Shown here in pieces: positions 18,158 through 56,133 of a DNA stretch of 64,000 nucleotides (the first letter of the stretch is position 1; each line of letters opens with the position of its first letter). A program made the translations under genes and the position numbers. The notes under the pieces are model-generated. The model was not told the origin of the DNA and made no database searches. It was given only the letters and a program-made list of their open reading frames with translations. Source of the stretch: Escherichia coli (lineage in GTDB: Bacteria > Pseudomonadota > Gammaproteobacteria > Enterobacterales > Enterobacteriaceae); the NCBI RefSeq assembly GCF_002854065.1, contig NZ_CP024151.1. One strand, written 5' to 3'.

Positions 18158-20319
18158 CAGAAATCATCTCCCGGCTCAACATCCTCCCCACGCTCCCGGT
18201 GCACATTAATGTTCACCTCTTCACGACGCTGCATCTGCTGCTGGATGTCCGGATGATTTTCCTGTTGCCATGCCTCATAAGCGGCCATATCCACCACTTC
18301 ACCGGATTCACTGATCCCGGGTGGCAGTTGCTGTTCCATCTCTTCTTCCGGTTTCATTTTCAGCTCCTGCTCGATCCCCCCTGCCGGAACATTCACACCT
18401 GAATCTGACTTCTTATCGTTTATGGCAGGAGACACCGGCTGTTGCGGCTGTTGCGGCTGTTCAGCCTGAGTCACGTCTTCTCCGGAAACAACTTCCGGCA
18501 CATCCGGTTCGAAGAGGCTGGCCATCTGACGACCTTCTGCTTCCCTTGCGGCAAGTACGGCACTCAGACGGTTCTCCATTTCCGGGTTGATGTCACGCGG
18601 AATAAACTCAGGGGCAACCTTCGGACGTGCCTGATATTTCAGTGAGAGTTTTACTGCCGGATACGGTCCGGGCAGGGTGACATAACAAGTCAGATCCGGC
18701 AGAGACTGAATGTCGGAATAACTGACCAGCGTCTGGCGCTCCATATCCTTACCGGTCGATACCCCGTCACGTACCGGATCAGCACCGTAGGAATACTGCT
18801 CGCTGGCTTTCAGGTGCTCTTTCTCACCAATCTCACCGGCAGCGAACTCTGCAATCTTATGGCTGGGAGAACGGAAAAAGGCACGAGTGTTCATGACGTC
18901 AAACAGCGTGGCAGCCGCTTTCTCACCGTAGATATCTTCCAGCTGGGCATAGGACTGGATACCAAACACATAACAGCCACCGAACTTACGGGCTTCCGGC
19001 AGGATCTCCACCAGGTCCGGCAGTTTGTGTAACGTGGGTAGCTCATCACAGAAAAACCACACACGACGGTTACGGTTTTCTCCCATTGCCAGCAGACCAC
19101 GAATGGCAATGGACAGCCACATGGAGATCACCGGCTTCAGGGAGGCATGGGTGTCGGCATTCGACGAGATAAACAGCCAGCCGTTTTTCTGATCTTCCCG
19201 GACACCCCGCATCCAGTCACGGATGGTAAAAGACTCACCGTTATGCTCAATCCCCTGCAGGTAACGGATGGCTTTCACGTAGTTGGTCAGCACAGCACGG
19301 ATGGAAATCGCCGTTTTCTCAATTTTCTCTTCCACCAGGTTGGCCGCCGGTGAATTACGCAGGAAGGTACGCAGTTTTTCGATTTTGATGGAAAGCAGTG
19401 TGTCCACCAGTTTGCTGTAGCTGCGGTTGGGGTCATTACGCATCAGGTACGCCGCTTCCGCAAAAATGGTACGTCCTGAACCCTGCCAGAACGGGTCCTC
19501 TTTTGTGCCCATCGGGATCAGAGTATTTGCGGTATTATCAAAATCCGGCTGTGTCAGGCACTCCTTCCACAAATCCCAGGCGGCACAACGGGCATCCAGC
19601 GGATTCAGGATTTTATCGATGGAGGGATCATAGTAACTTTTAACAAATTCCCCTGAACGGTCATAAATCACCACCATATCTCCACGCTGACGGGCGTAGT
19701 TGGCCAGACGACGGATAACTTCCGACTTACCGGCCCCGACCGTGCCGTGCAGACAGAAGTTCTGGATTTCGGAATCCCGGATAATCGGCAGGTCGCCAAT
19801 CCGTATATCGGAGTCCTTGCCGTCTTTTTTCAGCATCCGGGCAACGTCTTTCGGGTTCTCCGTCAGCTGACGACCACCTGTGACTTCATTTTCGCTCTGT
19901 TGTTTACCCTGACGCCCCAGAATCCAGGAGACAACAAAGAAGGTAATCAGGCAAATAACCAGTGCCACAACTGTAGCCAGAACGAATGCGGACCATAGCT
20001 GCTCTCCGCACCAGATCATATATTTATCATGCAGTACCTGAGCAGCGTTCATCCGGAAGGTTTTGCCGTAATACTGGATCTCATAGACCGGCTGGGACTT
20101 GATTAAATCCCGCATGCCTTCCAGCGTGGTACACCACCAGTAAATACAGCCGTTCACAAACGTCTGCCAGCTTATTTTTACCCATAAAACCAGACCAACG
20201 AGTATCCAGAAAAAAATAAACAGGCAGTAAAGCATGATATTGGCGATCTGGCTGAACATGCGGATACGCATGGACGCAATCTGACCGCCCTGGGTCATAT
20301 CCTTTGCGTTAAAACTCAT
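18157..20319 (-). CDS. traD: TraD type IV coupling protein
   Basis: 720 aa [24 protein letters not shown]..., Walker [10 protein letters not shown]-terminal QQP repeats; stop overlaps traI start. Confidence 0.97.
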
Positions 20320-26319: not shown

Positions 26320-26854
26320 CTTTTTTTCCTCCGTACATCTGCAGAACGGTATCCATCCGCGCCATAAAACCGGCGGCATCCGTTGCCCCCTGTAAAAGCG
26401 GTAATGCCTCAAGCGTGTTGACGTTGACCAGGAAGGTGGTCGGTGTGGCCACCGGGATATTCGGGAAGAAGGTCTGCATCACGTCCGGTGGCACCGGTAA
26501 TGCTTCCGGAAAGGCGGTATCCCCCTGACCATCCAGGGTGTAGGGAAAAACGGAAAAGCCGTACTGCTGTGCCAACTGCTTCAGTACCGGGTCAAACTGG
26601 TGACAGTAAGGGCAATGCCCCTGCATAAACAGCACCACCTTCCAGTCGGCCAGGTTAACCTGCCTGCCGTTGCTGAGGCGGAACCAGCGGGGAGCCGGCT
26701 TTTCTGTCCTGGCTGATGTGTCTGCTGCCGGTTGTGCAGGCTGCGCGGCCATGCCCTGCGGATTCCAGAGTCGTTCAATTTCATCCCGGGTGGAGGCCTG
26801 CACGGCAGCGGCTGCCAGCAACAGGGTGAACAACAGTGATTTAATGAGAGACAT
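26309..26854 (-). CDS. trbB: TrbB periplasmic thiol-disulfide isomerase (DsbC-like)
   Basis: 181 aa with signal peptide and CPYC active-site motif. Confidence 0.9.
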   Translation of the reverse strand: MSLIKSLLFTLLLAAAAVQASTRDEIERLWNPQGMAAQPAQPAADTSARTEKPAPRWFRLSNGRQVNLADWKVVLFMQGHCPYCHQFDPVLKQLAQQYGFSVFPYTLDGQGDTAFPEALPVPPDVMQTFFPNIPVATPTTFLVNVNTLEALPLLQGATDAAGFMARMDTVLQMYGGKKGAK

Positions 26855-27125
26855 GTCTGCCCTCCTGCTGCCCTTCCATCATGGCCTGTTGTCTTGCTTC
26901 CAGCGCCTCACGCTCTTCCCGGCTGACACGGGCAATCCATGCATCCAGCACCTGGTATGCGCCGAACAGCACGAGAATGGCCGCAATCAACTCCGCCAGA
27001 AAAAAAGCCATCCAGGGTTTGCTGTAAACAAGACGGGCGACGATATGAAACCAGACACCCAGGGAAAATACCCACATTCCCGTAATATCAAGCCGGGGTA
27101 AAGAGAATCTGCGTTTACTTATCAT
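26841..27125 (-). CDS. traQ: TraQ pilin chaperone
   Basis: 94 aa MISKRRFSLPRLDITGMWVFSLGVWFHIVARLVYSKPWMAFF... Confidence 0.9.
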   Translation of the reverse strand: MISKRRFSLPRLDITGMWVFSLGVWFHIVARLVYSKPWMAFFLAELIAAILVLFGAYQVLDAWIARVSREEREALEARQQAMMEGQQEGRHVSH

Positions 27126-27243
27126 GTTAAACTCCGGTTATTATTTACATGAGAGTATTTATGTCTGTAATATTCGCGTTTGTGTGATATTAATCAGATC
27201 AACCTCATTATTTTGTATGGTTTTTATTACCGTTTTATATGAC

Positions 27244-27591
27244 TTAGCCTGTCATAAGCCCCCTTATAAAAAACCACATCACTCCGGACCATACTGATGA
27301 CAACATAATACAGATAAATATTCTTCTGAACCCGTCGAAGCTCGTAACATTCGGTAATGAGCCAATAACCATTGGAACAACCATTGCTGCGCCCTGATTC
27401 ATAATTGCACCACACAGAAACCAGAGACTGGCAGTCAGCACATATAAACACGCGATATTAATAACAAGGAAAACCAGTGAGCTCAGGAGAAACATTTTCC
27501 TGTCATTACGCTCAGAAAAAAAATAACCGGCAATAATGACAAATATTAACAGAACAACACCTGTAAACAGTTTCAAATAATCTTCACTCAT
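27244..27591 (-). CDS. trbA: TrbA inner-membrane protein
   Basis: 115 aa hydrophobic MSEDYLKLFTGVVLLIFVIIAGYFF... in the conserved position between traQ and traF. Confidence 0.85.
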   Translation of the reverse strand: MSEDYLKLFTGVVLLIFVIIAGYFFSERNDRKMFLLSSLVFLVINIACLYVLTASLWFLCGAIMNQGAAMVVPMVIGSLPNVTSFDGFRRIFICIMLSSVWSGVMWFFIRGLMTG

Positions 27592-27606
27592 AAATCAAAT
27601 CCGCGA

Positions 27607-28350
27607 TTAAAAATTGGGTTTAAAATCTTCAGAAACGTTTAGGAATTGTTTTGCCAGGTCGTCCTGCGAAATAAAGCCGTATGATAACGGGCGAACACTG
27701 CCCTGTTTCGGGTCAACCAGCATCATGGCCGGGAAATATTTCACGCCGAGGCGCTGCGCCTGCCCCTGGTCAGTCCGGGAATCCGGCAACAGCGGATTAA
27801 TCACACCATCCACGGAAACGGGAATAACACTCAGACCATAGGTATCCCTGAAGCCATTAATGACCTGCGCCAGCTGCCCGTCGATGGGGTCCTGCCCCCG
27901 GTAAAAGAACATGATGCCGTAGTGTTCAGCCAGTTTCGCAATGGCCTGTCGCTGCTGCACCTGGTCTGCCGCCAGCTGGTTCCGGACCGTGCCGTTGTAA
28001 TGGCTGTACTGCAGGTTATAGTCCAGTTCGGGATGCGCCAGCATGGATTTTTTGGCGCTCATGGTGAAAAGCCCGGCCTGCTGAGTCCAGTAATTCTGCA
28101 GCCGGAAATATTTCACAAAATTATCCACGCCGGGATACAGAATAGCTTCGTACAGCGCCCGCTTTGTTGCCGTCTGCAGTGCGGCCAGTTTCTGCATAAT
28201 GTCCGGCTCCTGACGGGGGGCTGCAGGTACTGGTTTATTTTCTTTTTCCTTCGGATTTATTTTCTCGTTATACCACTGCCAGCCTGCATCTTTTCCTGAC
28301 GCCGGAAAAATAAAGCAGCAGAGTAACAGTGGCAGTAATGCTTTATTCAT
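27607..28350 (-). CDS. traF: TraF pilus assembly protein (thioredoxin-like fold)
   Basis: From internal ATG: MNKALLPLLLCCFIFPASGKDAGWQWYNEK..., 247 aa as in F. Confidence 0.95.
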   Translation of the reverse strand: MNKALLPLLLCCFIFPASGKDAGWQWYNEKINPKEKENKPVPAAPRQEPDIMQKLAALQTATKRALYEAILYPGVDNFVKYFRLQNYWTQQAGLFTMSAKKSMLAHPELDYNLQYSHYNGTVRNQLAADQVQQRQAIAKLAEHYGIMFFYRGQDPIDGQLAQVINGFRDTYGLSVIPVSVDGVINPLLPDSRTDQGQAQRLGVKYFPAMMLVDPKQGSVRPLSYGFISQDDLAKQFLNVSEDFKPNF

Positions 28351-31078: not shown

Positions 31079-32071
31079 TCACAGGAAGACACAGTTACGT
31101 TTACGCCACATCAGGTAGCCGAAGTTTTTCTTTGTATTGGGCGGATTTTTCCCGGTTTCCCAGCGGGTCACACTGCGCCCGAACGGGTGGCACTGTCCGC
31201 TGTCCGGGTACATATTCACCATCTGATAACGCCAGCGTTCTTTGGGCAGGATTGGGGACGGATATTCATTACAGACGGCGTTATTTTTCCCGATGGTTTC
31301 CATAATCATGCCCTGACGGTGCAGCTTGAACGCCATGCGTTCACTGACCAGCAGGGAGGACTGCAACGGACTGGACTCATTACTCACCCAGCCATTGAAC
31401 GGGTACATACTGCCCTGCGAACCGGCACACCAGAACAGAACATCGAGAGGCATATTAAAGGCGCTGGCAATGGCATCTGCTGCACAGGCCCCCTGTGCTA
31501 TCGGATTGGCAAAGATGACAGCTTCCGGATTGAGAATGGTGGTCAGGCTGCTGTCCGTCCAGGTGGGGTCAATTTCAGAAAGATAAGCGATATCCAGGTC
31601 ACCACCTTCCAGACAGCCCAGCGATGTGATGATGTTAAGCCAGTACGTCAGCGGGTATTTGTACCAGTGAACGTGATAGAACGCCCCGTTCACCTGCTTC
31701 TCATCTTTTTTCGCCGTTCCCTGTGCCGTTTTACCAAAAGCCGGCAGGCTGAAGCCCAGGTTAACCATGCATCCCGGTGACCGGGTGACGTCCGTCAGCG
31801 CCATCGGCTCCCAGTAACCAATGGCCAGCCCGATACGCCTGAACAGCGGCGGCGGTGCCGGACAAATCTGAATGGGCATCGACGGGTTCGCCGTGTCGGG
31901 GACCTTACCCTGACTGACTTTGATACTGCCCAGCGAGAGCGGGAAAATACAGCTCCAGCAGATATCCGTGATCGGGTTTACAAAACGCCCCTCACAGGCA
32001 GAATCCGCAGACGCTGCAGGGACATGACCGGCGAGAAGGAATAACATCAGCAGCCACAGGCTTCGCTTCAT
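31079..32071 (-). CDS. traU: TraU pilus assembly / DNA transfer protein
   Basis: 330 aa MKRSLWLLMLFLLAGHVPAASADSACEGRFVNPITDICWSCIFPL... Confidence 0.95.
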   Translation of the reverse strand: MKRSLWLLMLFLLAGHVPAASADSACEGRFVNPITDICWSCIFPLSLGSIKVSQGKVPDTANPSMPIQICPAPPPLFRRIGLAIGYWEPMALTDVTRSPGCMVNLGFSLPAFGKTAQGTAKKDEKQVNGAFYHVHWYKYPLTYWLNIITSLGCLEGGDLDIAYLSEIDPTWTDSSLTTILNPEAVIFANPIAQGACAADAIASAFNMPLDVLFWCAGSQGSMYPFNGWVSNESSPLQSSLLVSERMAFKLHRQGMIMETIGKNNAVCNEYPSPILPKERWRYQMVNMYPDSGQCHPFGRSVTRWETGKNPPNTKKNFGYLMWRKRNCVFL

Positions 32072-32700
32072 TTTCTGCCCTCCTCTGCCGGAATAAATTC
32101 CACCTTCAGGAAGCGATCGCCGGGAACGGCGCTCACCCGTGCCGGGACCTGATCAATGCCGAGGCGCTGGCAGAGCACACCGTTCTGGTCAAAGTAAACA
32201 CGGCTGTCCAGAGACTTCTGCATCTCCGGGATACTGCCCTGCACGAGGATAATTTTGCTCTCCAGTGTGGGCGGCGTCTGGCGTTTCATCCAGGCCACCT
32301 GCGCCGGATCATCGCCATTGATGAAATACAGCGTCTGGTTAAAAGGAACATACTGCAGCGGATTCATCACTTCACCCTGACGGGCAAACACCCGCCCTTC
32401 GTTATCCCGGATATCCGCAGCCAGTCTGACGGACGGGTCAAACAACCGGCTACCGTATTTCTCCGTGCGTCCGATACCGGGCACGGCAGGGGGCCGCAGA
32501 CTGTTGCGGATCACCCGCTCCTTAAAGGCATCCATTTTCCGGCCCATCTCACCGGACTGCTCCAGTGCCGTCAGGCGCTGCATGATCACCGTCAGCATGT
32601 CCGGCTCCTTTACCGGCCACAGATCGCCCCAGGTACCAAGATCGGCGGCGGCCACACTCTGCCCCCATATCAGCAGGGCAATCAGCCCCCGGCATCTCAT
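32068..32700 (-). CDS. traW: TraW pilus assembly protein
   Basis: From internal ATG: MRCRGLIALLIWGQSVAAADLGTWGDLWPVKEPDMLTV..., 210 aa; ATG directly after trbI stop. Confidence 0.9.
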   Translation of the reverse strand: MRCRGLIALLIWGQSVAAADLGTWGDLWPVKEPDMLTVIMQRLTALEQSGEMGRKMDAFKERVIRNSLRPPAVPGIGRTEKYGSRLFDPSVRLAADIRDNEGRVFARQGEVMNPLQYVPFNQTLYFINGDDPAQVAWMKRQTPPTLESKIILVQGSIPEMQKSLDSRVYFDQNGVLCQRLGIDQVPARVSAVPGDRFLKVEFIPAEEGRK

Positions 32701-42655: not shown

Positions 42656-43069
42656 AAGACAGTACCTTTTATATTCTGAAACAAGTGTTTTATTTCATTT
42701 ACTAATAGTTTGGTCTGAAAAAAGAAGAGCACCCCTAGCAGCGCCCCTAGGGGCATACTATAAAAAAACGCACGGCGCTGCTAGGGGCGGCCCTAATATA
42801 TCCAAATGTTTTTCATAAAATTTGTCAGTACTGACCCTAACAAGGGTCGCCATAGGGTCGCCATAGGGTCGTCAACGCCCCTATTTAATAATGTAAAATA
42901 AATTAAAATACATTATTTAAAACATAAGCTAATGATTCAAAAAGCAAATCAGCAAAAACTTGTTTTTGCGTGGGGTGTGGTGCTTTTGGTGGTGAGAACC
43001 ACCAACCTGTTGAGCCTTTTTGTGGAGTGGGTTAAATTATTTACGGATAAAGTCACCAGAGGTGGGAAA
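42656..43069 (+). other. oriT: oriT; nic site between 42978 and 42979 on the plus (transferred) strand
   Basis: Plus strand carries the F nic sequence TTTGCGTGGGGTGT^GGTGCTTT, inverted repeat GGTGGTGAGAACCACC (42988-43003), and GGGTCGCCATA direct repeats upstream. Confidence 0.85.
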
Positions 43070-43875: not shown

Positions 43876-44697
43876 TCATGACTTCCACTTTCTGAACTGT
43901 TCGGCAATCACCCATAACGCCTTGTTGATTCTTATATCACCATCAATACCTGTAATGGCTCTTGTCATGGTATTTTTCCCGGAGGCACTTCGCCCCGATA
44001 ATCCACCTTTTATCATATTCTCCTGAACCCGCTGCCAGGTCGTCCAGAGATCGTTCTGTTTATCCTCCCGACGACGGGGAGTAATTATCTGTTCAGGCGT
44101 CACTGGCGTTTTATTTTCATCTTCATACCTGACCATCAGTGCAGCTCTGCCAAATAAATGTTGCTCGTCACTGTTAAGATGAATTTCTTTCATCGCCTCC
44201 ATATTATCAGTGACCTTATCAAAGACACCGAGTACTTCATACGCTCCCTCGATAACCTGCCCGACAATATCACCTTTATGTGGAACGCGGATTTCGCCAA
44301 AATTATTTCCGCACACCAGGCCATTTGTGCAGACAAAACGAAAAATTCCGGGGATCATCTGATAACTGGATGAACCATCATGTGAATTAAGCAGGATAAT
44401 TTCAGGAACTTCCTGCCCGTTAATATGCCCTTCCCTGCGAAGACGTAACATATGTTTACTGTATTCGCGACGTCCCAAATCACGAACCCGACTCTGACAG
44501 GCAAAGAATGGCTGGAAACCTTCATCACGTAACTTATTGATGATATTGATTGTTGGAATATACGTATAACGTTCACTCCGGGACTTATGTTTATCACCGG
44601 AAAATACCGAAGGCACGAACTGCATTAATTCATCATCCGTTAAAGGACGTTCACGGCGGATGGAATTATACCGACCAAAACGGGAAGTTAATCGCAT
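43876..44697 (-). CDS. Conserved leading-region protein (DUF932-like, YubP-like)
   Basis: 273 aa from internal ATG MRLTSRFGRYNSIRRERPLTDDELMQF..., AGGAGT RBS. Confidence 0.65.
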   Translation of the reverse strand: MRLTSRFGRYNSIRRERPLTDDELMQFVPSVFSGDKHKSRSERYTYIPTINIINKLRDEGFQPFFACQSRVRDLGRREYSKHMLRLRREGHINGQEVPEIILLNSHDGSSSYQMIPGIFRFVCTNGLVCGNNFGEIRVPHKGDIVGQVIEGAYEVLGVFDKVTDNMEAMKEIHLNSDEQHLFGRAALMVRYEDENKTPVTPEQIITPRRREDKQNDLWTTWQRVQENMIKGGLSGRSASGKNTMTRAITGIDGDIRINKALWVIAEQFRKWKS

Positions 44698-44815
44698 AAC
44701 AGCTACTCCTTTATGAAAGAATAAATTTAATAAAAAATTTTTCCGCTTAATATAATCCCCCCCGATCTCCATTAACAAGATTGCAACAATCAGGAGGGGT
44801 ATTCATCACATCCGG

Positions 44816-45103
44816 TCAGCAGATCGCCCGGATATCGAGGCCGGCACGCTTAATCTGACGCAGGAACTGTTTGAAGTGATCGGCTTCCGCAATGTTGATA
44901 TGGCGGAACTGCTTATCCACACCCTGACTGAGCGCGTAGCTATAACTGAAGGCCATCTTTTCCGGGTGGCTTTTGCGATATTTTTTCAGCTCAGTCAGGC
45001 TGCTGAATTCCAGGACGTCCCACTCTTCCCCGGTGTTTTTTTTCTTCCCGGCAACAAGAAGCGTGTACGACGCGGTGTTAACGTGGATATTTCGGGTACT
45101 CAT
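44816..45103 (-). CDS. Hypothetical leading-region protein (95 aa)
   Basis: ATG preceded by AGGAGA; immediately downstream (minus strand) of repeat copy 1. Confidence 0.5.
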   Translation of the reverse strand: MSTRNIHVNTASYTLLVAGKKKNTGEEWDVLEFSSLTELKKYRKSHPEKMAFSYSYALSQGVDKQFRHINIAEADHFKQFLRQIKRAGLDIRAIC

Positions 45104-45123
45104 CCTGCTTTCTCCTCTCTCTG

Positions 45124-45765
45124 GTTTTCAGCCCCCATCATCTGTTGAGTTTCGGGAGCCGCGGTTTTGACGTTTTGCGGGGACCTGCCTTTTGTTCCCT
45201 CCGGTATTCACCATCACCTTTTTGAGAACCTTCGCCGCAAGGGGCATCACTGCCACGGCCGGAAACGACTGTCCGGGGGCAGACCGCAAAAGTTTTTGCC
45301 TGCTTTTGAGCAAAAAGTTTTGCGGGATGTGCATTTCACCCCTGGACTGGCGGAGACGGTTGTGGCTGTCTATGCCCCCGGCGACAGGGGCTTAAACAGG
45401 TGAATGGCACCGGACACAACAACGGGCAGGGACCCGCCGCAACGACGTGAAGCGCGGTTTGCGAAACGGCGTTGCCCCTTACATCCCGGCGGCCTTTTGC
45501 CGGGATGCCGGGAGCGCAGGCCACGGCGCGACAGAGGCGGCGCGACCGGAACGGTCGCTGCAAGCCCGGGGTTTTCACGCATCGGACCGTAGCGACAGCC
45601 CGAAACCGCGCCAGCGGGTTCGGCGGAGACTGGCAGGTGCGCCAGCAGCTGCCTGTCGGAGTCGGGTCTGACGACCGGATGCCGCCAGGCAGCCGGGAGC
45701 CGAAGGTGCGCCCGGCAGACAGGACAACACTGCAGTAGTCAGAATCAGAGCAGGAAGAAAAAGAG
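45124..45765 (-). repeat. GC-rich leading-region repeat, copy 1 (Frpo/ssi-like candidate)
   Basis: ~640 bp nearly identical to 50461-51093 and, over its distal ~390 bp, to 53826-54433. Confidence 0.8.
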
Positions 45766-46024
45766 AATAATCACAGGGAAGGTGATGTGATTTCTGACAG
45801 GCCATAACCAGAGAAGGCGGGGGAAAAGAACGGGCGCCGCAGGCGCGCGTTCATCCCCGTTCCTGAAGGGAAACGACCTTCCTGAAGTCAGGTTGTTCAT
45901 GCCCGTACAACATCAGCAAGGAGAAAGGGGCTACCGGCGAACCAGCAGCCCCTTTATAAAGGCGCTTCAGTAGTCAGACCAGCATCAGTCCTGAAAAGGC
46001 GGGCCTGCGCCCGCCTCCAGGTTG

Positions 46025-46183
46025 CTACTTACCGGATTCGTAAGCCATGAAAGCCGCCACCTCCCTGTGTCCGTCTCTGTAACGAATCTCGCACAGCGAT
46101 TTTCGTGTCAGATAAGTGAATATCAACAGTGTGAGACACACGATCAACACACACCAGACAAGGGAACTTCGTGGTAGTTTCAT
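46025..46183 (-). CDS. hok: Hok-family toxin (Hok/FlmA-like), intact
   Basis: [52 protein letters not shown]; 3' UTR GC-rich fold-back region follows. Confidence 0.85.
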
Positions 46184-46241
46184 GGCCTTCTTCTCCTTGC
46201 GCAAAGCGCGGTAAGAGGCTATCCTGATGTGGACTAGACAT
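46029..46241 (-). CDS. mok: Mok/FlmC-like overlapping reading frame
   Basis: 70-codon ORF overlapping hok in the +1 frame. Confidence 0.6.
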
Positions 46242-46462
46242 AGGGATGCCTCGTGGTGGTTAATGAAAATTAACTTACTACGGGGCTATCTTCTTTCTGT
46301 CACACAACACGGCAACAAACCACCTTCACGTCATGAGGCAGAAAGCCTCAAGCGCCGGGCACATCATAGCCCATATACCTGCACGCTGACCACACTCACT
46401 TTCCCTGAAAATAATCCGCTCATTCAGACCGTTCACGGGAAATCCGTGTGATTGTTGCCGCA

Positions 46463-47182
46463 TCACGCCGCCTCCCGGAGTTTGTTCGGCACCATCCATC
46501 GCTCCATCTCACGGACGGCATGACCGGCCTCCCTTGCCGCCATACCAGCCTCTGCGATGACCTGCCAGAATGGCATATCCTGCCACTGCCAGCGTTCCAT
46601 TCCGGCCAGTGACGGAAAACGCTCGCCCCACTGCCAGAACAGGGTTTCCAGGTCATGCTCTGCCACCCGGTCACTCCAGCGTGCATGCCAGCTTCCGACT
46701 GTTTCCGGTGAATGAAATGCCAGTTCGATTTCAGCCTGAGCGACCAGCGCCTGGTACGCACGGGCTTTCTGCTCTGTCTCCCTCGCCTGCTGGCGGCTGT
46801 ACTTCTGCATGACCAGCGCGGATTTATGGCGACTGCGTTCCCTGACACGAAACCGCACCGACGGGAACAAGCGCTCTGCTGCATCACCGGGAAGGGGAAG
46901 GAGGCAGACCTCGCCCTGTGTTTCAATCAGCACATCGATGGCATACAGCCACTGAAGACGGTTGCCGTGCAGTTCTTCTGCGGTCAGGGACGGCATGAAA
47001 AATCGCAGGTCAGACAGCGATATCCTGCGGCTTCCGTTCAGACAGCGGAAAAACGCCCCCGCATACGGATATTCAGCCAGCGTGTTACCCTGATGGCGGC
47101 GTTTTTCGGTCTCCGCCACCGCCCGCCATGCGGCCTGTTGCTCTGTGCTGAGAGGAACCAGTGCCTGTGAACGTGCGCTCAT
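46463..47182 (-). CDS. psiA: PsiA (plasmid SOS inhibition operon protein A)
   Basis: 239 aa [50 protein letters not shown]... Confidence 0.9.
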
Positions 47183-47613
47183 GCCTGACCTCCTTCCGCC
47201 ATCAGGATATGGATGATGTCGTTAACGCTGTATCCCTGCGTATCCAGTGACGCCGCCAGTGCCAGTGAATGGCTGACGGCTTCCGGTGCAAACCGCCGCT
47301 GTACCTGAACCACCGCAAACGGCTCACCACCGGCATTCACCAGAACCAGCACCCAGACCTGGGAGACATCGCCCGGTGAACATAACGCCAGGTGAAAACG
47401 TTCGTGGGCAGGCGTGAAACGGACCTGGACGGGGAAAAAGCCGCCAAACTCGCTGCCGTACTCGCCGTTCATCGTCCAGTTGTCCGGCGCATCCAGCTCC
47501 CGCATCACGGCGTGTGTCAGCTCACGGCGTGCATCACTTCCGGCAGCCCGGATATCTTCATATTCCTGTGCGTTCATGGTATGTAATACATTCAGAGTCA
47601 GTTCAGTTTTCAT
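47179..47613 (-). CDS. psiB: PsiB (anti-SOS, RecA inhibitor)
   Basis: [46 protein letters not shown]...; stop overlaps psiA start. Confidence 0.95.
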
Positions 47614-47667
47614 CACGGTATCTCCCTTGCTGCCGCCCCGTCTCCGGCGGGGCGGTGTGGTTGTTCA

Positions 47668-49626
47668 TCAGGCGGCATCAGCCAGGTTATCGGTGCGTTC
47701 AGTGGCATCCGTCTGTGGGCGTGGTGCACACATCCAGCCAGGCACCCAGCGGTTGTCTTTCATATGGTGCTCTGCATGTTCAGCCGCATCGCCTTTCTTC
47801 ATCTTCTCCGCGTCCCGTGCGGCACCGGATAGTCCTGCCTCATTCAGGGCTGCGATAATCTGCGGCTTTTTCAGGTGTCCGAAAAAGTTTGCTTTCGTCG
47901 GCTGCCACCAGTCGCGCATGTGAAAGCCGATGGCGCTCTCCAGCGTGTCCAGCGGACTGCGTGACGTGTGACCATACTCACGGGTCTGGACACCGTGGAT
48001 ACTGCACGCGGTGCAGAAACTGAGCAGTGATAACAGCACCTCCTGACTGAGTGACAGGAACGTCGTCATATCCCGTGCCCATCCATCCGGCAGCAGGGCG
48101 GCAAGACGGGCTTTTTCTGCCATCATCGTCATGAATGCGGCACCTTCCTTCCCTGACGGCGCATCGCTGGTCAGCGAATAATGCTCACATTCCAGGCGGA
48201 TTCTGGCGGGATTGCTGTAAGCTCCGCTGCCAAATACATTCAGACAGAGTGTCCATGCCAGAAGTGCCAGGGATTTGTCCGGCTGCTGCATCAGTGCTGC
48301 CTGGACTGCCAGCGTGCGCTCTGAGGACATTTTCGTCAGCAGTGGCAGACTGATTTCCTCCACGGAGGCTTTCTCCTGCACCTGTTCCGTGTGGTCAGCG
48401 TCGTCAGCCACATCATCCTCACTGCGTAACTGCACACCACGCTGGACACATACGTTTCCATAACGCCAGGACACCACCACGCCACTTCCGGCACGCATCT
48501 CCGGCGTCCACGCCCTGACCTTCGCCATGCAGTCAATCAGCTTCATTTCTGCTTCCAGCAGGTCGGATTCCTCACACTGGTTTTCCAGCGCATCGTAACG
48601 TGCCATCAGTTTGTTCAGGCGTTCTTCTTCTGCCTCCGTCAGCACCGCTTCCGGCTCCGGCAGACTGCGGTATGTTCCGGCATCCTCACGGCACTCACCA
48701 ACGGCCTCCATGCGTCCGGCACACCATCCCCAGCCCTCGGCTTCCCGAAGGTGTTCAGCAACAGCCTGGAGTTTTTCCAGCAGGGCAGCATCGAGCGCAA
48801 CACAGTCCACATAGCCACCCTCGTCGTCGCTGAACAAATCGGTGCGCAGTTCATCTGGCGAGAAGGCATCAGCCCCCACAAAGCGGAATTTAGTGTTCCC
48901 CGCCACCGCCACTTCACTTTCGGTCACCAGACGACGAATGGTCTGTACTTCCGGTTTTCCGCCCCATCCCGACTGACAGGCAGCTTCAAACACCTGCACC
49001 TGACGCGCGGTGTCGTTCTCCAGCGCCAGCGCCTGACAGTGCTCTGTGGTGATGCGGTCTTCTGCCAGCGCATCGAGGATGACAGGCGCAAGGTCTGCCA
49101 GTTTCAGCATTCGCTGAACGTGGCGGGGTGAATAGCCCAGCAAATCACCGATTTGTGCAGGCGTTTTGCCTTCCTGCGCCATTGCACGGAATCCGGCAAT
49201 CTGTTCGGCAGGGTGCATATCCCGACGATGACCGTTTTCAGTCATTGATGCGGCAGTCGCCAGTTCCTGCGGAATAACCTTCACGCGGACAGGCCAGTCA
49301 GCCGGAAGGATGTTGCGCTCTGCCAGCATGTTGAGTGCTGCCAGTCGGCGACCGCCTGCGGCGACACCGTAACGGTCACCTGGCAGGGCATGAACAACCA
49401 GATTCTGCAGCAGGCCGACGCCCTTAATGGACTCTGCCAGTTCGCTGACAGACTCCGCAGAATACGGCACCGTGCGCACATTCAGCGGTGACTTAATCAG
49501 CGAGGCCAGCGGCACGCTCACTTCAGCCGTCTCCGCCAGCAGGGCCGACAGGACTGTTTCCTGCGTTTTTGCAGGTTTACGGCTGGATTTACGCTCCGTT
49601 TTTACCTTAGACTCTGTAACTGACAT
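47668..49626 (-). CDS. ParB-like nuclease domain protein (652 aa leading-region protein)
   Basis: N-terminal ParB/Srx-like segment LVVHALPGDRYGVAAGGRRLAALNML; start at internal ATG preceded by AAGGAG. Confidence 0.8.
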   Translation of the reverse strand: MSVTESKVKTERKSSRKPAKTQETVLSALLAETAEVSVPLASLIKSPLNVRTVPYSAESVSELAESIKGVGLLQNLVVHALPGDRYGVAAGGRRLAALNMLAERNILPADWPVRVKVIPQELATAASMTENGHRRDMHPAEQIAGFRAMAQEGKTPAQIGDLLGYSPRHVQRMLKLADLAPVILDALAEDRITTEHCQALALENDTARQVQVFEAACQSGWGGKPEVQTIRRLVTESEVAVAGNTKFRFVGADAFSPDELRTDLFSDDEGGYVDCVALDAALLEKLQAVAEHLREAEGWGWCAGRMEAVGECREDAGTYRSLPEPEAVLTEAEEERLNKLMARYDALENQCEESDLLEAEMKLIDCMAKVRAWTPEMRAGSGVVVSWRYGNVCVQRGVQLRSEDDVADDADHTEQVQEKASVEEISLPLLTKMSSERTLAVQAALMQQPDKSLALLAWTLCLNVFGSGAYSNPARIRLECEHYSLTSDAPSGKEGAAFMTMMAEKARLAALLPDGWARDMTTFLSLSQEVLLSLLSFCTACSIHGVQTREYGHTSRSPLDTLESAIGFHMRDWWQPTKANFFGHLKKPQIIAALNEAGLSGAARDAEKMKKGDAAEHAEHHMKDNRWVPGWMCAPRPQTDATERTDNLADAA

Positions 49627-49690
49627 ATATTTCTCCTTTGACCGGGGTGGTTGTATGTCTGCCGGACGTGATCCCCGTCCGGCACCTCTC

Positions 49691-50438
<748 letters not shown>

Positions 50439-50460
50439 GATGTGCCTCCTTCTGTTGATG

Positions 50461-51093
50461 TTTTCAGCCCCCATCATCTTTTGAGTTTCGGGAGCCGCGG
50501 TTTTGACGTTTTGCGGGGACCTGCCTTTTGTTCCCTCCGGTATTCACCATCACCTTTTTGAGAACCTTCGCCGCAAGGGGCATCACTGCCACGGACGGAA
50601 ACGACTGTCCGGGGGCAGACCGCAAAAGTTTTTGCCTGCTTTTGGGCAAAAAGTTTTGCGGGATGTACATTTCACCCCTGGACTGGCGGAGACGGTTGTG
50701 GCTGTCTTTGCCCCCGGCGACAGGGGCTTAAACAGGTGAATGGCACCGGACAGAACAACGGGCAGGGACCCGCCGCAACGACGTGAAGCGCGGTTTGCGA
50801 AACGGCGTTGCCCCTTACATCCCGGCGGTCTTTTGCCGGGATGCCAGGAGCGCAGGCCACGGCGCGACAGAGGCGGCGCGACCGGAACGGTCGCTGCAAG
50901 CCAGGGGTTTTCACGCATCGGACCGTAGCGACAGCCCGAAACCGCGCCAGCGGGTTCGGCGGAGACTGGCAGGTGCGCCAGCAGCTGCCTGTCGGAGTCG
51001 GGCCTGACGACCGGATGCCGCCAGGCAGCCGGGAGCCGAAGGTGCGCCCGGCAGACAGGACAACACTGCAGTAGTCAGAATCAGAGCAGCAGG
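50461..51093 (-). repeat. GC-rich leading-region repeat, copy 2 (immediately upstream of ssb)
   Basis: Nearly identical to copy 1 with a few substitutions. Confidence 0.8.
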
Positions 51094-51104
51094 AAAAAGA
51101 AGAA

Positions 51105-51152
51105 CAGTAGCAGTAGCAGTAGCAGTAGCAGTAGCAGTAGCAGTAGCAGTAG
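51105..51152. repeat. Hexanucleotide tandem repeat (CAGTAG)8
   Basis: Eight perfect CAGTAG units adjacent to repeat copy 2. Confidence 0.9.
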
Positions 51153-51330
51153 CAGGAACAACAACATCAGTAACAGACAAATGACAGGCATGAAGAAACA
51201 GAAGCCCCCATCAGAACGTCCGCGTAATGAAAGGGGCGGCGCGTGAGCGCGGCCCCTTTCAGCACCACCGGCGCGCGTTTTTTCCCGGCGCGGGCAGACA
51301 GGCATTTATCCTCCCGCCGGCCCTGTGTCA

Positions 51331-51894
51331 TCAGGCACGCAGACGAATAATCATCGTCGGGACATCGGTATAAGCAAACGTGCCGCGCGGCAGCTCCTCG
51401 CGGACGTCAGAAAACGGTAACAGCTTCTCCTGCTGGCGTGGTCCGTTGAGACAGACGGCGACCAGCACGCCACCCGGACGCAACAGGGAAAAGGCCCGCA
51501 GGATATGCCGGATATCCTGCCCGTGGCTGAACGGCGGATTCATGATAACCCGGCTGTAATACTGCACCGGCTGCCATTCCATGAAGTCGCCACACTGAAC
51601 CCTGACACCGTTAAAATTTTCCCGCAGATACCGGACCAGCCCGCTGTTGATTTCCACCGCATCACACATGGCCCCCGGCGCGGTATCCCGAATCGCCCGC
51701 AGTATGGCCCCGGTGCCGGCAGAGGGTTCCAGAATGTGATCACGGTTGCTGATCTCCGCCAGCATCACCAGGCGATCACAGACCGGGGCAGGAGTCACAA
51801 AAAGCTGAGATTCAGCCCGGATTTCAGCAACCGGCGCGGCGTTATCCAGCCTTGCGCGCATCAGCCGGATACGTTCTCTTAACTGACTGTGCAT
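51331..51894 (-). CDS. SAM-dependent methyltransferase (putative N6-adenine class, NPPF motif)
   Basis: 187 aa with SAM-binding motif EPSAGTGAIL followed by IMNPPF. Confidence 0.65.
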   Translation of the reverse strand: MHSQLRERIRLMRARLDNAAPVAEIRAESQLFVTPAPVCDRLVMLAEISNRDHILEPSAGTGAILRAIRDTAPGAMCDAVEINSGLVRYLRENFNGVRVQCGDFMEWQPVQYYSRVIMNPPFSHGQDIRHILRAFSLLRPGGVLVAVCLNGPRQQEKLLPFSDVREELPRGTFAYTDVPTMIIRLRA

Positions 51895-51941
51895 ATCATT
51901 ATCTCCGTCATCCCCCGGGGATTTTCCCGGGGGGATATACC

Positions 51942-53303
51942 TTATTTCTGTGGGATTTCCGTGATTTTCATGTCGGAGATATACACATTCACCAGGCGGA
52001 AATTATTGTCCATTGTGCGGCGGTACCGGTATGCCCCGTGGTCTTCTGCTTCTGCCACACTGCGCACGGCCTTACAGTCCCGGGGCAGGGCGGCCCACTG
52101 TGCCTTTGTCATTTCCCGGAAACCTTCCCCCGGATAGTTGACTACCGGCGGACGCTTCGCGGCCTGACTGGCGACGGCAGCCTCTTCTGCCGATGGTGCT
52201 TTGTAGTCCGTGATGCGATCGGGCGTCACTTTCATCGTGCCGCTGTACCCGAGAAAACTGTAATTTGGCGTTGTGACTGAACTCACCGCCCCGTTGCTTT
52301 TGTTCACACGGATGATGGTCAGCCACTCGCCCCGGCTGAAAACCTGTCCGCCCGGCTCAAAATCCTGTGTCCGGGTAACCACGCCGCCGCTTTCGTCCAG
52401 CATGGCACGCTCATAGATCAGGCGGTTCTGATAGTGGTTAACCCAGCGTTGTTGATGCTGAATCTGCCGTTCATGACAGCGGATCGCAATTTCGCGGGCC
52501 TGCTCCGTGGTGATGATGTCATCATCCAGGGCCGACCATAACGATCGACTTCCTTCATACTGGCTTTTTTCTGCCGGGCGCGGATACGTATCCAGCGGGA
52601 AACAGGCGCTGATATGGTCATGACTGCTGATGAGTTTTGCCATATTCAGATCCAGCGATTCAGCCCGCCACATCGTCAGATATTTCTGCGACTGCGCGAT
52701 GGTCTTTTCAGCCTTGCGCAAATCAGCTTCGATTTTTTTGATACGACGCCAGCGAACGTCCGGACGTTCTTTATACTTCGCGTGAAGCAGTGCCGACCGC
52801 GCCCGCTCTTCCCAGTATTCCGCACGTTCAAAGAGCATCACGGCTCGTTTCATGCCGTTTTCAATACGCTGCGCATCACGACGGGCGCGGCGTTCGCTGT
52901 GATGCCCCACAAGAATGGGCTGACCGGGCGGGATCATCGCGGCCAGTCTTTCCACTTCATCAAGTGCCTGTGCGGATTCACTGGCCCGCTTTCCGCTGTA
53001 TCCGGTAAACCGCTCCGCCCGTGCTTCCTGACGTTCAGCGAGCGTGCTGTCTTCATCCTCAATCTCTCCGGCAAGTGAGAGGAGCACGTCTTCCCGGCCC
53101 GGTGTCCAGGCTGGCGCGACAAACAGCGCCTGTTTGGGTGCCCAGCGAAAACCGGCATCATGCACTTTTTTATACGTCTCCGGGTCGAGGCGTGACGCGG
53201 CATACAGGCGCAGTTTGTTGTCATCCGGTGAGTAGGTCGCGCGGTACATCTGCACAGGGCTGGCGGCTTCCGGGGCGGTCATGGTGATTGCTGCTAATGT
53301 CAT
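51942..53303 (-). CDS. Conserved leading-region protein of unknown function (453 aa, DUF3560-like)
   Basis: ATG preceded by AAGGAGA; charged helical central region, no recognisable catalytic motif. Confidence 0.5.
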   Translation of the reverse strand: MTLAAITMTAPEAASPVQMYRATYSPDDNKLRLYAASRLDPETYKKVHDAGFRWAPKQALFVAPAWTPGREDVLLSLAGEIEDEDSTLAERQEARAERFTGYSGKRASESAQALDEVERLAAMIPPGQPILVGHHSERRARRDAQRIENGMKRAVMLFERAEYWEERARSALLHAKYKERPDVRWRRIKKIEADLRKAEKTIAQSQKYLTMWRAESLDLNMAKLISSHDHISACFPLDTYPRPAEKSQYEGSRSLWSALDDDIITTEQAREIAIRCHERQIQHQQRWVNHYQNRLIYERAMLDESGGVVTRTQDFEPGGQVFSRGEWLTIIRVNKSNGAVSSVTTPNYSFLGYSGTMKVTPDRITDYKAPSAEEAAVASQAAKRPPVVNYPGEGFREMTKAQWAALPRDCKAVRSVAEAEDHGAYRYRRTMDNNFRLVNVYISDMKITEIPQK

Positions 53304-53354
53304 AAAATGTTCTCCTTCCGTCTGTTGCCGCCCCTCGCGGGGCGGCTCACCTCA

Positions 53355-53585
53355 TCAGTTAAAAGCGCGTTTCAGTTCGAGTGTGCGGAGCACCTGCCCG
53401 AAGGCCGTGTTTTTCATGGCGGGGATGTGTACACCACGCCCCCGGTGAAAACTCCGGGCAATGTGTCGCCCGAAGGCTTTCAGCACGGGGTCAATTTCCG
53501 GCGCGGGGATGTCTTCGCGTCTGAAACGGGGATGACGGCGGGGCTTTACAGCCGCTGCGGAAGGTGAAACAATACTTACTGTCAT
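53355..53585 (-). CDS. Hypothetical small basic protein (76 aa)
   Basis: ATG with AAGGAG RBS, downstream of repeat copy 3. Confidence 0.45.
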   Translation of the reverse strand: MTVSIVSPSAAAVKPRRHPRFRREDIPAPEIDPVLKAFGRHIARSFHRGRGVHIPAMKNTAFGQVLRTLELKRAFN

Positions 53586-53825
53586 AAATGAAACTCCTTA
53601 TGACAAATTGGTTAACAATGCCGTCAAAATTGGTTGTGCAATTCTTACGGCGTGGATTAAGCAGGTCCCTGACCTGCTTTTTTCATATCTGCGTCTGACG
53701 TTCTACGGTGTTTTCCTCCTTCTGTTCCTGCGTTCTCATTACCTGCCAGCCGGATGACTGACAGAACAAATAAATGCATATTGCCGGAGCCTGAAATAAA
53801 TCCTGATTTTTAAAGAACATCACCC

Positions 53826-54433
53826 GTTGAGTTTCGGGAGCCGCGGTTTTGACGTTTCGCGGGAACCTGCTGCTGTATTCCCTGTGGTATGAACTTCACC
53901 CGTTTGAGAACCTTCGCCGCAAGGGGCATCACTGCCACGGCCTGACGCACCTGTCCTGGGCAGAACGCAAAATTTTTTACCGGGTTTTGGGTAAAAAATT
54001 TTGTGGGCTGTTCATTTACCCTGGACAGTCAGTGCGGCAGGTTGTGGCTGTATCAGCCCCCGGCGACAGGGACTCATACGGGTGTGTGGCACCGGCAGGC
54101 AATGAGCAGGGACCCGCCGCAACGACGGAGAGCGCGTGCGCGAAACGGCGTTGCCCCTTACATCCCGGCGGCCTTTTGCCGGGATGCCGGGAGCGCAGGC
54201 CACGGCGCGACAAGGGTGGCGCGACCGGAACGGTCGCTGCAAGCCCGGGGTTTTCACGCATCGGACCGTAGCGACAGCCCGAAACCGCGCCAGCGGGTTC
54301 GGCGGAGACTGGCGGGTGCGCCAGCAGCTGCCTGTCGGAGTCGGGCCTGACGACCGGATGCCGCCAGGCAGCCGGGAGCCGAAGGTGCGCCCGGCAGACA
54401 GAACAACACTGCAGTAGTCAGAATCAGAGCAGC
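53826..54433 (-). repeat. GC-rich leading-region repeat, copy 3 (diverged in proximal third)
   Basis: Distal ~390 bp closely match copies 1 and 2; first ~220 bp diverge after the shared GTTGAGTTTCGGGAGCCGCGGTTTTGACGTTT. Confidence 0.75.
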
Positions 54434-54622
54434 AGATAAAGGAACAACAACATCAGGAACAGTTCCATAACATAAGAAAGAAACACTCCTGAGTCAGACA
54501 CATCACAGACGGGAAGGGTAACGGGCGACGCGCCAGCGTGGCCCGCTTCCCTTCCGGCAGGCGTCAGCCTGCCAGGGGTTTTCGCGCGGACTGACAGGCG
54601 GCCTCCACCGCCTGCCCCTGTA

Positions 54623-54814
54623 TCACCTGTTTCTGCTACCCTGTAAGATGTAGTGACCGCCCAGGAAAACCGCCTGCTGATTCGCCACAAAATCGCAGAT
54701 TTCATCAACAATCTGCGCGGTGGTGAGCGGTTTCTGCCCCATTTCACGACGCCGCGCATTAATCACGGCCCTGTAATTACGCAGAATTTCGCGGGTTTCT
54801 GTGCTGATATTCAT
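54623..54814 (-). CDS. Hypothetical small protein (63 aa)
   Basis: ATG overlapping the stop of the upstream 144 aa gene (ATGA), suggesting coupling. Confidence 0.45.
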   Translation of the reverse strand: MNISTETREILRNYRAVINARRREMGQKPLTTAQIVDEICDFVANQQAVFLGGHYILQGSRNR

Positions 54815-55245
54815 GACATCGTCTCCCCGTCCAGCGCCTGTAACACAACGTCCATTGCTTCGCGTTCCTCCCTGACGAATGCGTCACCGTCGCCCCCGTT
54901 CTCACTCCCGACGGCATACAGGCGCTTCATTTCACTGCCTGCCAGCGCCATCACTTTTTCCAGCATCACCGCCGGGACTGTCACCTGACGGCTGGCGCGC
55001 TTTTCTTCCATCAGTTCATGAACAACGCCGTGAACAACGCCGTGAACAACGCTGACATCCGCACCATATTCAAAGGCATCGTCCAGCCGCTGCATGACGG
55101 TTTCCAGCTCATCGTCTGTCAGACTCCAGTCCTGGGCTATGTGACGCACATCCCCACGGGTCAGCACCACGGCAAAAACGCATTCACTGTCCGGCACGTC
55201 TGTATCCAGCACTTCGCGGATAATTTCTTTAACAGTACAGTACAT
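54811..55245 (-). CDS. Conserved leading-region protein, paralog B (144 aa, DUF1380-like)
   Basis: AAGGAGA RBS; shares N-terminal MY-T-E--RE, S/LTD-E--TV and RQVTVPA segments with the 56961-57395 ORF. Confidence 0.55.
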   Translation of the reverse strand: MYCTVKEIIREVLDTDVPDSECVFAVVLTRGDVRHIAQDWSLTDDELETVMQRLDDAFEYGADVSVVHGVVHGVVHELMEEKRASRQVTVPAVMLEKVMALAGSEMKRLYAVGSENGGDGDAFVREEREAMDVVLQALDGETMS

Positions 55246-55291
55246 GTTCTCGTCTCCTTTACAGGGGCGGCATTGCCGCCCCGTCCGTTAA

Positions 55292-55717
55292 TCAGTCCAG
55301 AGCCGCGTAAATCGCGTTGCATTCGGGGTGAAATTCGATGTGACGCCACAACTGCGCATCGCGCATCCGGTAAAGCTGGGTCAGTCCTGCATCCCCGCTG
55401 TCGTGGTACAGCCACAACTGGCGGTTAATCACAAGGGAGGTCAGGATGATGCCTGCGGCATCAGCACTCACGGTACGGTCAAACCAGTTTGCACCGTTCA
55501 CCATGTGGAAACGGTCGCCATCCGGCATCATGTAACCGCCACCGTCCGGCAGGCGGATGAAGTGCCAGAAGCCTCCCTGATATTCCGGCATCATTTTTTG
55601 CGCCAGCGCGTACACATACGCCTCGGCATACAGAAAATCGTTGCCAAACAGATACGGCAGAAAGGAGAGACGGTCGCACTCTTCAACATTCAGAGTGACA
55701 GGTTTCGCATATTGCAT
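55292..55717 (-). CDS. klcA: Antirestriction protein, KlcA/ArdB family
   Basis: 141 aa; [18 protein letters not shown] and NAIYAALD segments parallel KlcA of IncP; GGAGGA RBS. Confidence 0.85.
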
Positions 55718-56133
55718 GATGTTTTCCTCCGTTGTTCACATATTCCGCGACACCGGGCGGTGCCGTGCCTCCATAAAAGCCGGGCGAACAGGCGGGGATG
55801 CAGGGGCGCAAGGGAAGCCGCAGCCTGACGCACACGGCTGACGGGAGTTGCAGGGTGAGACCGCGAAATCTGAGCGGGTGAACGACCGGAAAATCACGGC
55901 AGACGGGAAGGAGGGACCGGGTGACCGCAGCGGCGAAGCGTACCCTTGCATCAACGCCAGCCCGGCTAAGATGGAGGCACGGCACAGCCCGCACACGACG
56001 CTGAGGCCACATAACTGAAAAACCACAAGGCCATGCCCTGCATGGCCGGGTAAAGCGGAGCCGGCGGCGACTTCCTTTGTGCTCTGTCCGGGGACCGGCA
56101 GGAAAAAGGCGGGGATTTACCCCGCCAGTGTCA

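Follow-up and report, generated by a model that had tools for sequence, protein, structure and literature searches.

The window, i.e. the whole stretch of 64,000 nucleotides that was analysed, contains the leading region of an F-like (IncF) conjugative plasmid, the genes of which all lie on the minus strand according to the list of open reading frames (ORFs) and the PGAP annotation of the identical plasmid NZ_CP055056.1 (Table 1). In the 1.5 kb surrounding the CAGTAG microsatellite considered here, the identity to IncF plasmids, NZ_CP055056.1 among them, is 100%, and the plasmid records that match this part number at least 5,000. The stop codon of the methyltransferase gene is 176 nt from the microsatellite, and beyond the DUF3560 gene there are antirestriction, DUF1380, and DNA methylase genes.

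The direction of transfer may be read from GGGGTGTGGTGCTTTT, which we take to be the nick-region sequence of the F oriT. It matches the plus strand at 42972–42987, a position flanked by traM, traJ, and an SLT gene in the annotation of the identical plasmid. Since the match is on the plus strand, this strand is the transferred (T) strand, and the tract enters the recipient approximately 8.1 kb after the nick.

The plasmid SSB encoded in this region is 150 residues long, versus 179 in F and in NZ_CP055056.1. It is without 29 residues of the disordered linker through an in-frame deletion flanked by the short repeated QPQPEPQ / QPEPQPQ, and its DDIPF tail is intact.

Table 1. Features of the leading region around the CAGTAG tract, in order of their positions in the window
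Feature	Position	Strand	Basis and remarks
Repeat copy 1, Frpo1-type	45124..45760	+	Repeat families, alignment to F; tail without a long simple-sequence repeat
hok/sok	~46025-46357	-	Annotation of NZ_CP055056.1, ORF list
psiA	46463-47182	-	Annotation of NZ_CP055056.1, ORF list
psiB	47179-47616	-	Annotation of NZ_CP055056.1, ORF list
ParB-like gene	47668-49722	-	Annotation of NZ_CP055056.1, ORF list
Plasmid ssb, first gene downstream of repeat copy 2	49986..50438	-	ORF list, annotation
Repeat copy 2, Frpo2-type single-stranded DNA promoter element, upstream of ssb(-psiB-psiA)	50460..51096	+	Repeat families D1 and D2, alignment to F, fold
89-codon ORF, (Ala-Thr)n; 'yddA' in older annotation, hypothetical protein in PGAP	50911..51180	-	TTG start, no Shine-Dalgarno
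A/G-rich, T-poor low-complexity tail holding the microsatellite	51075..51228	+	Composition, fold, homologous tails beside copies 1 and 3
74-codon ORF, poly-Leu	51081..51305	-	Starts at the conserved GGAGGATAAATG, 25 nt past the stop codon of the methyltransferase gene
(CAGTAG)8.5 perfect hexanucleotide microsatellite	51105..51155	+ (transferred strand)	Reads as (GCTACT)n or (CTACTG)n on the gene-sense strand
(AAC)3 then ATCAG, second small indel site	51157..51170	+	ACATCAG versus ACATCATCAG (+CAT) in many plasmids
GC-rich hairpin GAAAGGGGCGGCGCG-TGAG-CGCGGCCCCTTTC, methyltransferase-proximal end of the tail	51229..51260	.	Terminator-like, no proper U-tract
Class I SAM-dependent methyltransferase gene	51331..51894	-	ORF list, PGAP annotation of the 100%-identical NZ_CP055056.1
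DUF3560 gene	51942-53303	-	Annotation of NZ_CP055056.1, ORF list
Repeat copy 3, with the DUF3560 and methyltransferase genes downstream	53806..54439	+	Repeat families; (AAC)3 in the tail at 54443-54451

The repeat tract

Tandem Repeats Finder and direct reading both give CAGTAG × 8.5 at 51105–51155 (plus strand), with 100% matches, no indels, and a score of 102, which is the top score of all tandem repeats in the window. The perfect (CAGTAG)8 described in the first-pass annotation is confirmed by both; the eight full units occupy 51105–51152 and are followed by an extra CAG. The 12-mer CAGTAGCAGTAG has seven exact, overlapping occurrences, every one within the tract. At no more than one mismatch, eight matches are observed versus 0.08 in dinucleotide-preserving shuffles, and none of the 100 shuffles reaches eight. 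The tract is not an artefact of assembly, because it recurs with identical flanks in thousands of independently assembled plasmids.

On the minus strand the three frames of the tract read Ala-Thr (GCT ACT), Leu-Leu, and Tyr-Cys. The Ala-Thr alternation that had been predicted for translation of this strand is arithmetically correct, and its frame is that of the ORF named yddA in older annotations (PMC6052338).

Copy-number polymorphism

The number of units, n, was read directly in 21 sequences with near-identical flanks, and the values found were 1, 3, 4, 5, 6, 7, 8, 9, 11, and 12 (Table 2). The n = 1 allele belongs to a plasmid typed as conjugative.

Table 2. Copy number (n) of the CAGTAG unit in the sequences in which it was read directly
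n	Sequences
1	CP057369.1
3	pE312_IMP6
4	NZ_CP070230.1; p4D31-4
5	L007; L013
6	L004; L005; L012; L017
7	L003; L011
8	The window; L006; L016; pHN7A8; NZ_CP055056.1 (100% identical across the tract)
9	L002; R100
11	L009
12	pIP1206

For a wider sample, a 181-nt query spanning the tract was used, which gave 2,370 plasmid records at E ≤ 1e-45. With the same query the locus is found in 1,508 of the 5,426 complete E. coli genomes (1,639 records), and the hosts of the approximately 2,400 plasmids that carry it are Escherichia, Klebsiella, Shigella, and Salmonella. Alleles were decoded in 60 evenly spaced matches per search, with the 6-nt unit and the neighbouring +CAT as the indel types; about a dozen per search, which were partial matches or showed other span differences, were left undecoded. 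Among the 60 of each search, the decoded n ranges from 5 to 11 with a mode of 7–8, and most of the span differences are multiples of three.

Identity of at least 99% over the 181 nt is retained at the CAGTAG locus in only 200 of the 2,370 plasmids (8%). In the control, 176 nt from the corresponding part of the copy-3 tail with only (AAC)3, it is retained in 2,287 of 2,717 (84%). Therefore, the excess variability is a property of the repeat rather than of the region. The tract thus combines perfect copies beyond chance, copy-number steps of whole units, and a variability above that of the control, as is typical of a microsatellite or variable-number tandem repeat (VNTR). The earlier view that the hexamers are prone to slippage and variable in length is supported, with n varying from 1 to 12 among related plasmids.

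The polymorphism is already on record, having been published in 2018: Wang et al. (2018) listed copy numbers of 6–9 for a GCTACT repeat among near-identical plasmids (Table 2 of PMC6052338). GCTACT is the CAGTAG repeat on the opposite strand, in the Ala-Thr frame. In pHN7A8 (NC_019073.1) the sole such array is (GCTACT)8 at 32033–32080, with the class I SAM methyltransferase gene on one side and ssb on the other; its n of 8 agrees with the published table, and the identity of the locus is confirmed. A literature search by the literal repeat string returned no paper, the published mention (PMC6052338) giving the unit as GCTACT only. Differences in n between near-identical plasmids are found both there and in a database match (H32), and the near-clonal comparisons of that paper are the best available, if indirect, evidence for a high rate of slippage.

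The Frpo-type repeats and the promoter hairpin

The leading region holds three direct repeats, each of approximately 640 nt (the repeat copies of the first-pass annotation), which align with Frpo1 and Frpo2 of plasmid F. The Frpo elements are single-stranded DNA promoters. In F, the genes downstream of Frpo1 are ygeA/ygeB and those downstream of Frpo2 are ssb-yfjA-yfjB-psiB-psiA, and their early expression in the recipient requires the respective element; deletion of Frpo2 left the transfer frequency of F without measurable change (PMC9849209; further sources on Frpo elements and leading regions are PMC11541004 and PMC12672017).

Copy 2 consists of a long imperfect hairpin (about 50485–50800) and a conserved 'right part' (50801–51096). 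Folded as DNA, the transferred strand at 50440–51260 has an energy of -206 kcal/mol (z = -9.15 versus shuffles). Homology to Frpo1 and Frpo2 of F together with a long hairpin, the marks of a Frpo or ssi class 1 element, are found at 50460 to about 50915 and not at the microsatellite. The tract lies just past the conserved repeat. Along the transferred strand it is 3' of the Frpo2 hairpin, at a distance of over 300 nt and on the side away from ssb. It is mostly unpaired and takes no part in a -35/-10 stem, and it is outside the hairpin whichever arm holds the -35 and -10 boxes. When the transferred strand was re-folded with n = 0, 1, 4, 8, 12, and 16, the minimum-free-energy structure of the hairpin was identical, and the total fold energy shifted by approximately 3 kcal/mol of about -206 over this range.

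An anchor from the left flank, when sought in plasmid F, gave no match, because the Frpo repeat of F has a different right part. Two plasmids (L016 and L017) have an F-type right part and still carry the CAGTAG tract, which indicates that the tract travels with the methyltransferase-side tail.

In pIP1206 (NC_010558.1, L018; n = 12), a group II intron (ltrA) is inserted within the Frpo right part, with the microsatellite about 80 nt to its right. In pHN7A8 (L021), a group II intron is located elsewhere in the leading region (26531–28198). The intron has been described as a variable feature among plasmids (PMC6052338).

Low-complexity tails of the repeats

The tail that holds the microsatellite beside copy 2 consists of 44% A, 26% G, 20% C, and 11% T (51075–51215). 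All three copies share the sequence ending in CAGAATCAGAGCAG, after which a low-complexity tract follows with 42–47% A and 11–18% T on the transferred strand. The copy-2 tail (51081–51215, 135 nt) is essentially unstructured on both strands (-4.4 and -4.0 kcal/mol, z about 0), and a hairpin or slipped structure of the CAGTAG repeat itself, at -3.2 and -2.4 kcal/mol on the two strands, is no different from shuffles. In the copy-2 tail, GAAGAA and CAGGAACAACAACATCAG are separated by the inserted (CAGTAG)n block, and in the copy-3 tail the motif GGAACAACAACATCAGG is present without the block. Hairpins related to the one at the methyltransferase-proximal end (51229–51260) occur in the copy-3 and F tails.

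The statement in the first-pass annotation that nothing equivalent sits beside copies 1 or 3 is correct in part. The copy-1 tail is without a long simple-sequence repeat, but homologous A/G-rich tails are present at all three copies, the copy-3 tail contains (AAC)3, the same position is (AAC)9 in R100, and the Frpo2 tail of F contains (TTCCTCTTC)5. Frpo-type tails are places where simple repeats expand, as exemplified by (CAGTAG)1-12, AAC, and the GAAGAG-type tract in F. The (CAGTAG)1-12 arrays are found at the Frpo2 tail of plasmids with the methyltransferase module. At the corresponding position, plasmid F has a single degenerate unit, CAGTAACAG, without expansion. The presence of different simple repeats in other Frpo tails fits mutation-driven low-complexity evolution better than a function specific to CAGTAG.

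The (AAC)3 of the copy-3 tail occupies an equivalent place, and R100 (NC_002134.1, L020) has (AAC)9.3 there (12375–12402). For the most part the copy-3 (AAC) keeps to 3 units across 2,717 plasmids, and +/-3 or +6 variants are seen occasionally. The tract in the Frpo2 tail of F (NC_002483.1, L010; 8016–8062) is an imperfect (TTCCTCTTC)5.2, reading GAAGAGGAA on the transferred strand.

Regulatory signals and expression of ssb

A scan for sigma-70-like promoters at 50300–51500 found none, and two terminator-like hits were returned, neither of them at the tract. The hairpin at 51229–51260 was not called by the terminator scan. As no canonical terminator was detected, read-through from the copy-3 operon probably carries transcription across the tract. 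At gathering threshold, the Rfam matches at 44000–56000 are sok and AS-pc01 only, and none is at the tract. AS-pc01 (RF02875, 'Antisense to pHK01_035') is matched at 53580–53682 on the plus strand with 91.3 bits (gathering score, 79); the match is antisense to leading-region genes and falls in the interval from the DUF3560 gene region to Frpo copy 3. An RNA-level or regulatory role of the tract is conceivable, and no evidence for one was found.

The most developed form of such a role is that of a regulatory spacer, or plasmid 'contingency locus', in which n would tune early expression, either through the organisation of the entering T-strand around Frpo2 or through read-through of the methyltransferase operon into ssb-psiB-psiA. 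Variants of differing anti-SOS or SSB dosage would as a result coexist in a plasmid population. Repeats upstream of promoters that modulate expression are known, e.g. the TAAA tract upstream of nadA in Neisseria meningitidis. With such precedents, the hypervariability of the tract, its position between two early-expressed leading-region operons, and its probable inclusion in a transcript (there being no canonical intrinsic terminator between the methyltransferase gene and Frpo2) all speak for this role.

It is nevertheless unlikely, and the related suggestion that the tract is a length-variable spacer affecting expression of ssb is not supported, given its position and the comparison with F. 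The tract does not lie between the promoter and ssb but on the opposite side, beyond the hairpin, and enters the recipient after the hairpin. The predicted fold of the hairpin does not change with n from 0 to 16, and the 6-nt step is unlinked to helical phase or to a -35/-10 spacer. The n = 1 allele is carried by a plasmid typed as conjugative. In F, which has only the one degenerate unit in place of the repeat, Frpo2 works and drives early ssb expression (PMC9849209). Furthermore, because the deletion of Frpo2 itself did not measurably alter F transfer (PMC9849209), any tuning would have a small effect on fitness.

Overlapping reading frames

PGAP places two 'hypothetical proteins' over the tract. 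If either were real, the repeat would be coding, as (Ala-Thr)n in YddA or as part of a small hydrophobic poly-Leu peptide, and n would alter the length of the protein. In favour of this, both ORFs are called by PGAP and in older annotations in most plasmids, the 6-nt unit leaves any frame intact, and a good Shine-Dalgarno-ATG, GGAGGATAAATG, is conserved 25 nt past the methyltransferase stop. Both ORFs nevertheless look like artefacts of base composition. All three minus-strand frames are open across the tract, for 68–150 codons. The minus strand contains 11% A, so that stop codons are rare and open frames there carry no information.

Neither ORF has a reading frame, start, and ribosome-binding site that are all conserved among the homologues. 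The Ala-Thr ORF begins with TTG and has no Shine-Dalgarno, and its C-terminal 60 residues (two thirds) lie within the Frpo repeat, a DNA element present in three copies. A protein homology search with this 89-residue ORF gave 218 matches with heterogeneous N-termini. The 120 matches listed are all unnamed and all from Enterobacteriaceae, mostly E. coli, with no Pfam domain recorded among them. The protein matches are poor for counting n, because clustering at 90% identity merges alleles. The ORF that is led by the Shine-Dalgarno is cut by a 1-nt indel at about 51277 to 15 residues (MPVCPRREKTARRWR) in 10 of the 16 loci, and in one variant (P0005) the start of the poly-Leu ORF is fused to the Ala-Thr frame.

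From these sequence features, translation of the ORFs overlapping the tract appears unlikely, and the tract is most likely non-coding. The Ala-Thr ORF (yddA) is probably not a gene, and the poly-Leu ORF is probably not one beyond, at most, a 15-residue peptide. A coding repeat with n setting the protein length is, on the whole, quite improbable.

The Shine-Dalgarno-ATG GGAGGATAAATG itself (51303–51314) opens either the 15-residue ORF MPVCPRREKTARRWR (10 of 16 loci) or a poly-Leu ORF of 68–76 residues, depending on the 1-nt indel, and a short conserved peptide or a remnant of translational coupling may conceivably exist there. Within the Frpo repeat and the adjoining tail, 'hypothetical protein' genes of the PGAP style occur in most plasmids at positions equivalent to 50464–50670, 50911–51180, and 51081–51305 (all minus strand), and are probably annotation artefacts of a stop-codon-poor strand. 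The annotated ORFs over the tract have given rise to many accession numbers that differ in repeat number alone.

Discussion

The CAGTAG tract is, with good confidence, a neutral, slippage-prone intergenic microsatellite. It is best explained as a non-coding hypervariable VNTR in what would be an A/G-rich, unstructured linker on the transferred strand of the IncF leading region. The linker would run from the methyltransferase operon, at its 3' end, to the Frpo2-type single-stranded DNA promoter that drives ssb-psiB-psiA. The array may have originated by expansion of a proto-repeat like the single degenerate unit CAGTAACAG of plasmid F, and 6-base units would be gained and lost via slipped-strand mispairing in replication or in conjugative strand synthesis.

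Changes in the length of the tract are presumably neutral or nearly so, given a unit divisible by three and a position outside any promoter core and any verified gene, and the tract would accordingly be a fast-evolving marker rather than a switch. It appears to be dispensable, as F, without the expansion, has a working Frpo2 (PMC9849209), and a plasmid typed as conjugative has the n = 1 allele. Against neutrality, the alleles cluster at about 7–8 and not at the minimum, for which weak selection, a mutational equilibrium, or shared ancestry could account.

A different question is that of the tail as a whole. The A/G-rich, T-poor composition is conserved beside the three Frpo copies and in F, and therefore the whole tail may have a role. 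It could be speculated that the A/G-rich Frpo tails are functional linkers of the T-strand or of the read-through transcript, and that (CAGTAG)n is a plasmid-borne contingency element tuning read-through into ssb-psiB-psiA or the coating and processing of the strand; this combination is rated as very improbable. If it were true, early anti-SOS dosage would vary within plasmid populations, with variants for different recipients.

It is very unlikely that the tract is a Rho-utilisation or termination element, in which Rho would be loaded by the pyrimidine-rich RNA (CUACUG)n with its flanks and would terminate the methyltransferase-operon transcript with an efficiency set by tract length. For this reading, the RNA is U/C-rich, unstructured, untranslated, and located after a stop codon, and over the tract the C/G ratio reaches a maximum of 2.0 in one 78-nt window. 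Against it, the excess of C is modest and limited to that one window, YC dinucleotides number 3–6 per 78 nt in the two windows over the tract versus 10–18 in neighbouring windows, the tail is mainly U-rich and not C-rich, and the n = 1 and F-type tails are without the tract.

The tract has little mechanistic importance as the finding stands, and it would be of biological interest only if n were shown to tune early gene expression. It may be of use as a marker: being present in about one quarter of the complete E. coli genomes, it could separate closely related IncF plasmids in outbreak tracing, with the caveat that equal copy numbers can arise independently. The two 'hypothetical protein' calls over the tract, including yddA, are probably spurious and inflate the gene counts of pan-plasmid analyses with length variants. 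Expansion of simple repeats in Frpo tails is to be expected when single-stranded DNA promoters are aligned or delimited.

Comparison with known systems

The contingency loci that underlie phase variation in Haemophilus, Neisseria, Helicobacter, and Campylobacter share with the CAGTAG tract a perfect short repeat and a polymorphism in steps of one unit, most plausibly produced by slipped-strand mispairing. In contrast to these loci, the CAGTAG unit is a multiple of three, so that length changes do not cause frameshift switching, no ON/OFF phenotype is known, and the tract is outside any verified gene and promoter core. The 6-nt unit, with no conserved ORF and no promoter-like site at 50300–51500, sets it apart from a phase-variable contingency locus.

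The tract adjoins a Frpo-type repeat and is in this respect connected with the Frpo or ssi class 1 promoters of IncF and IncI leading regions (Masai and Arai 1997; PMC9849209; PMC12672017; PMC11541004). It differs from them in that the microsatellite is outside the hairpin, unpaired, and absent from the characterised Frpo2 of F.

The 9-bp CAACAGCCG (Gln-Gln-Pro) repeats in traD of F-like plasmids are likewise length-variable tandem repeats of the same plasmids, with 6–13 copies among F33:A-:B- plasmids (PMC6052338). They lie, however, inside a real gene and alter a protein linker, whereas the CAGTAG tract is most likely intergenic. In the window, (CGGCTGTTG)2.9 at 18436–18461 is the reverse complement of CAACAGCCG, with about three copies, and the surrounding ORF is a putative traD. 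The DUF1380 gene (54811–55245, minus strand) contains a perfect 12-nt repeat, (TGAACAACGCCG)2.8 at 55019–55052, which encodes a VHGVVHGVVHGVVH stretch and is possibly another in-frame length-variable site.

With the GCTACT repeat of PMC6052338, the tract shares both the locus and the repeat unit, read on the opposite strand. In that paper the repeat was placed inside the gene yddA and was a descriptive difference within one plasmid lineage. The present analysis adds that it is widespread, that n extends from 1 to 12, that it is probably non-coding, and that it belongs to the low-complexity tail beside a Frpo-type element.
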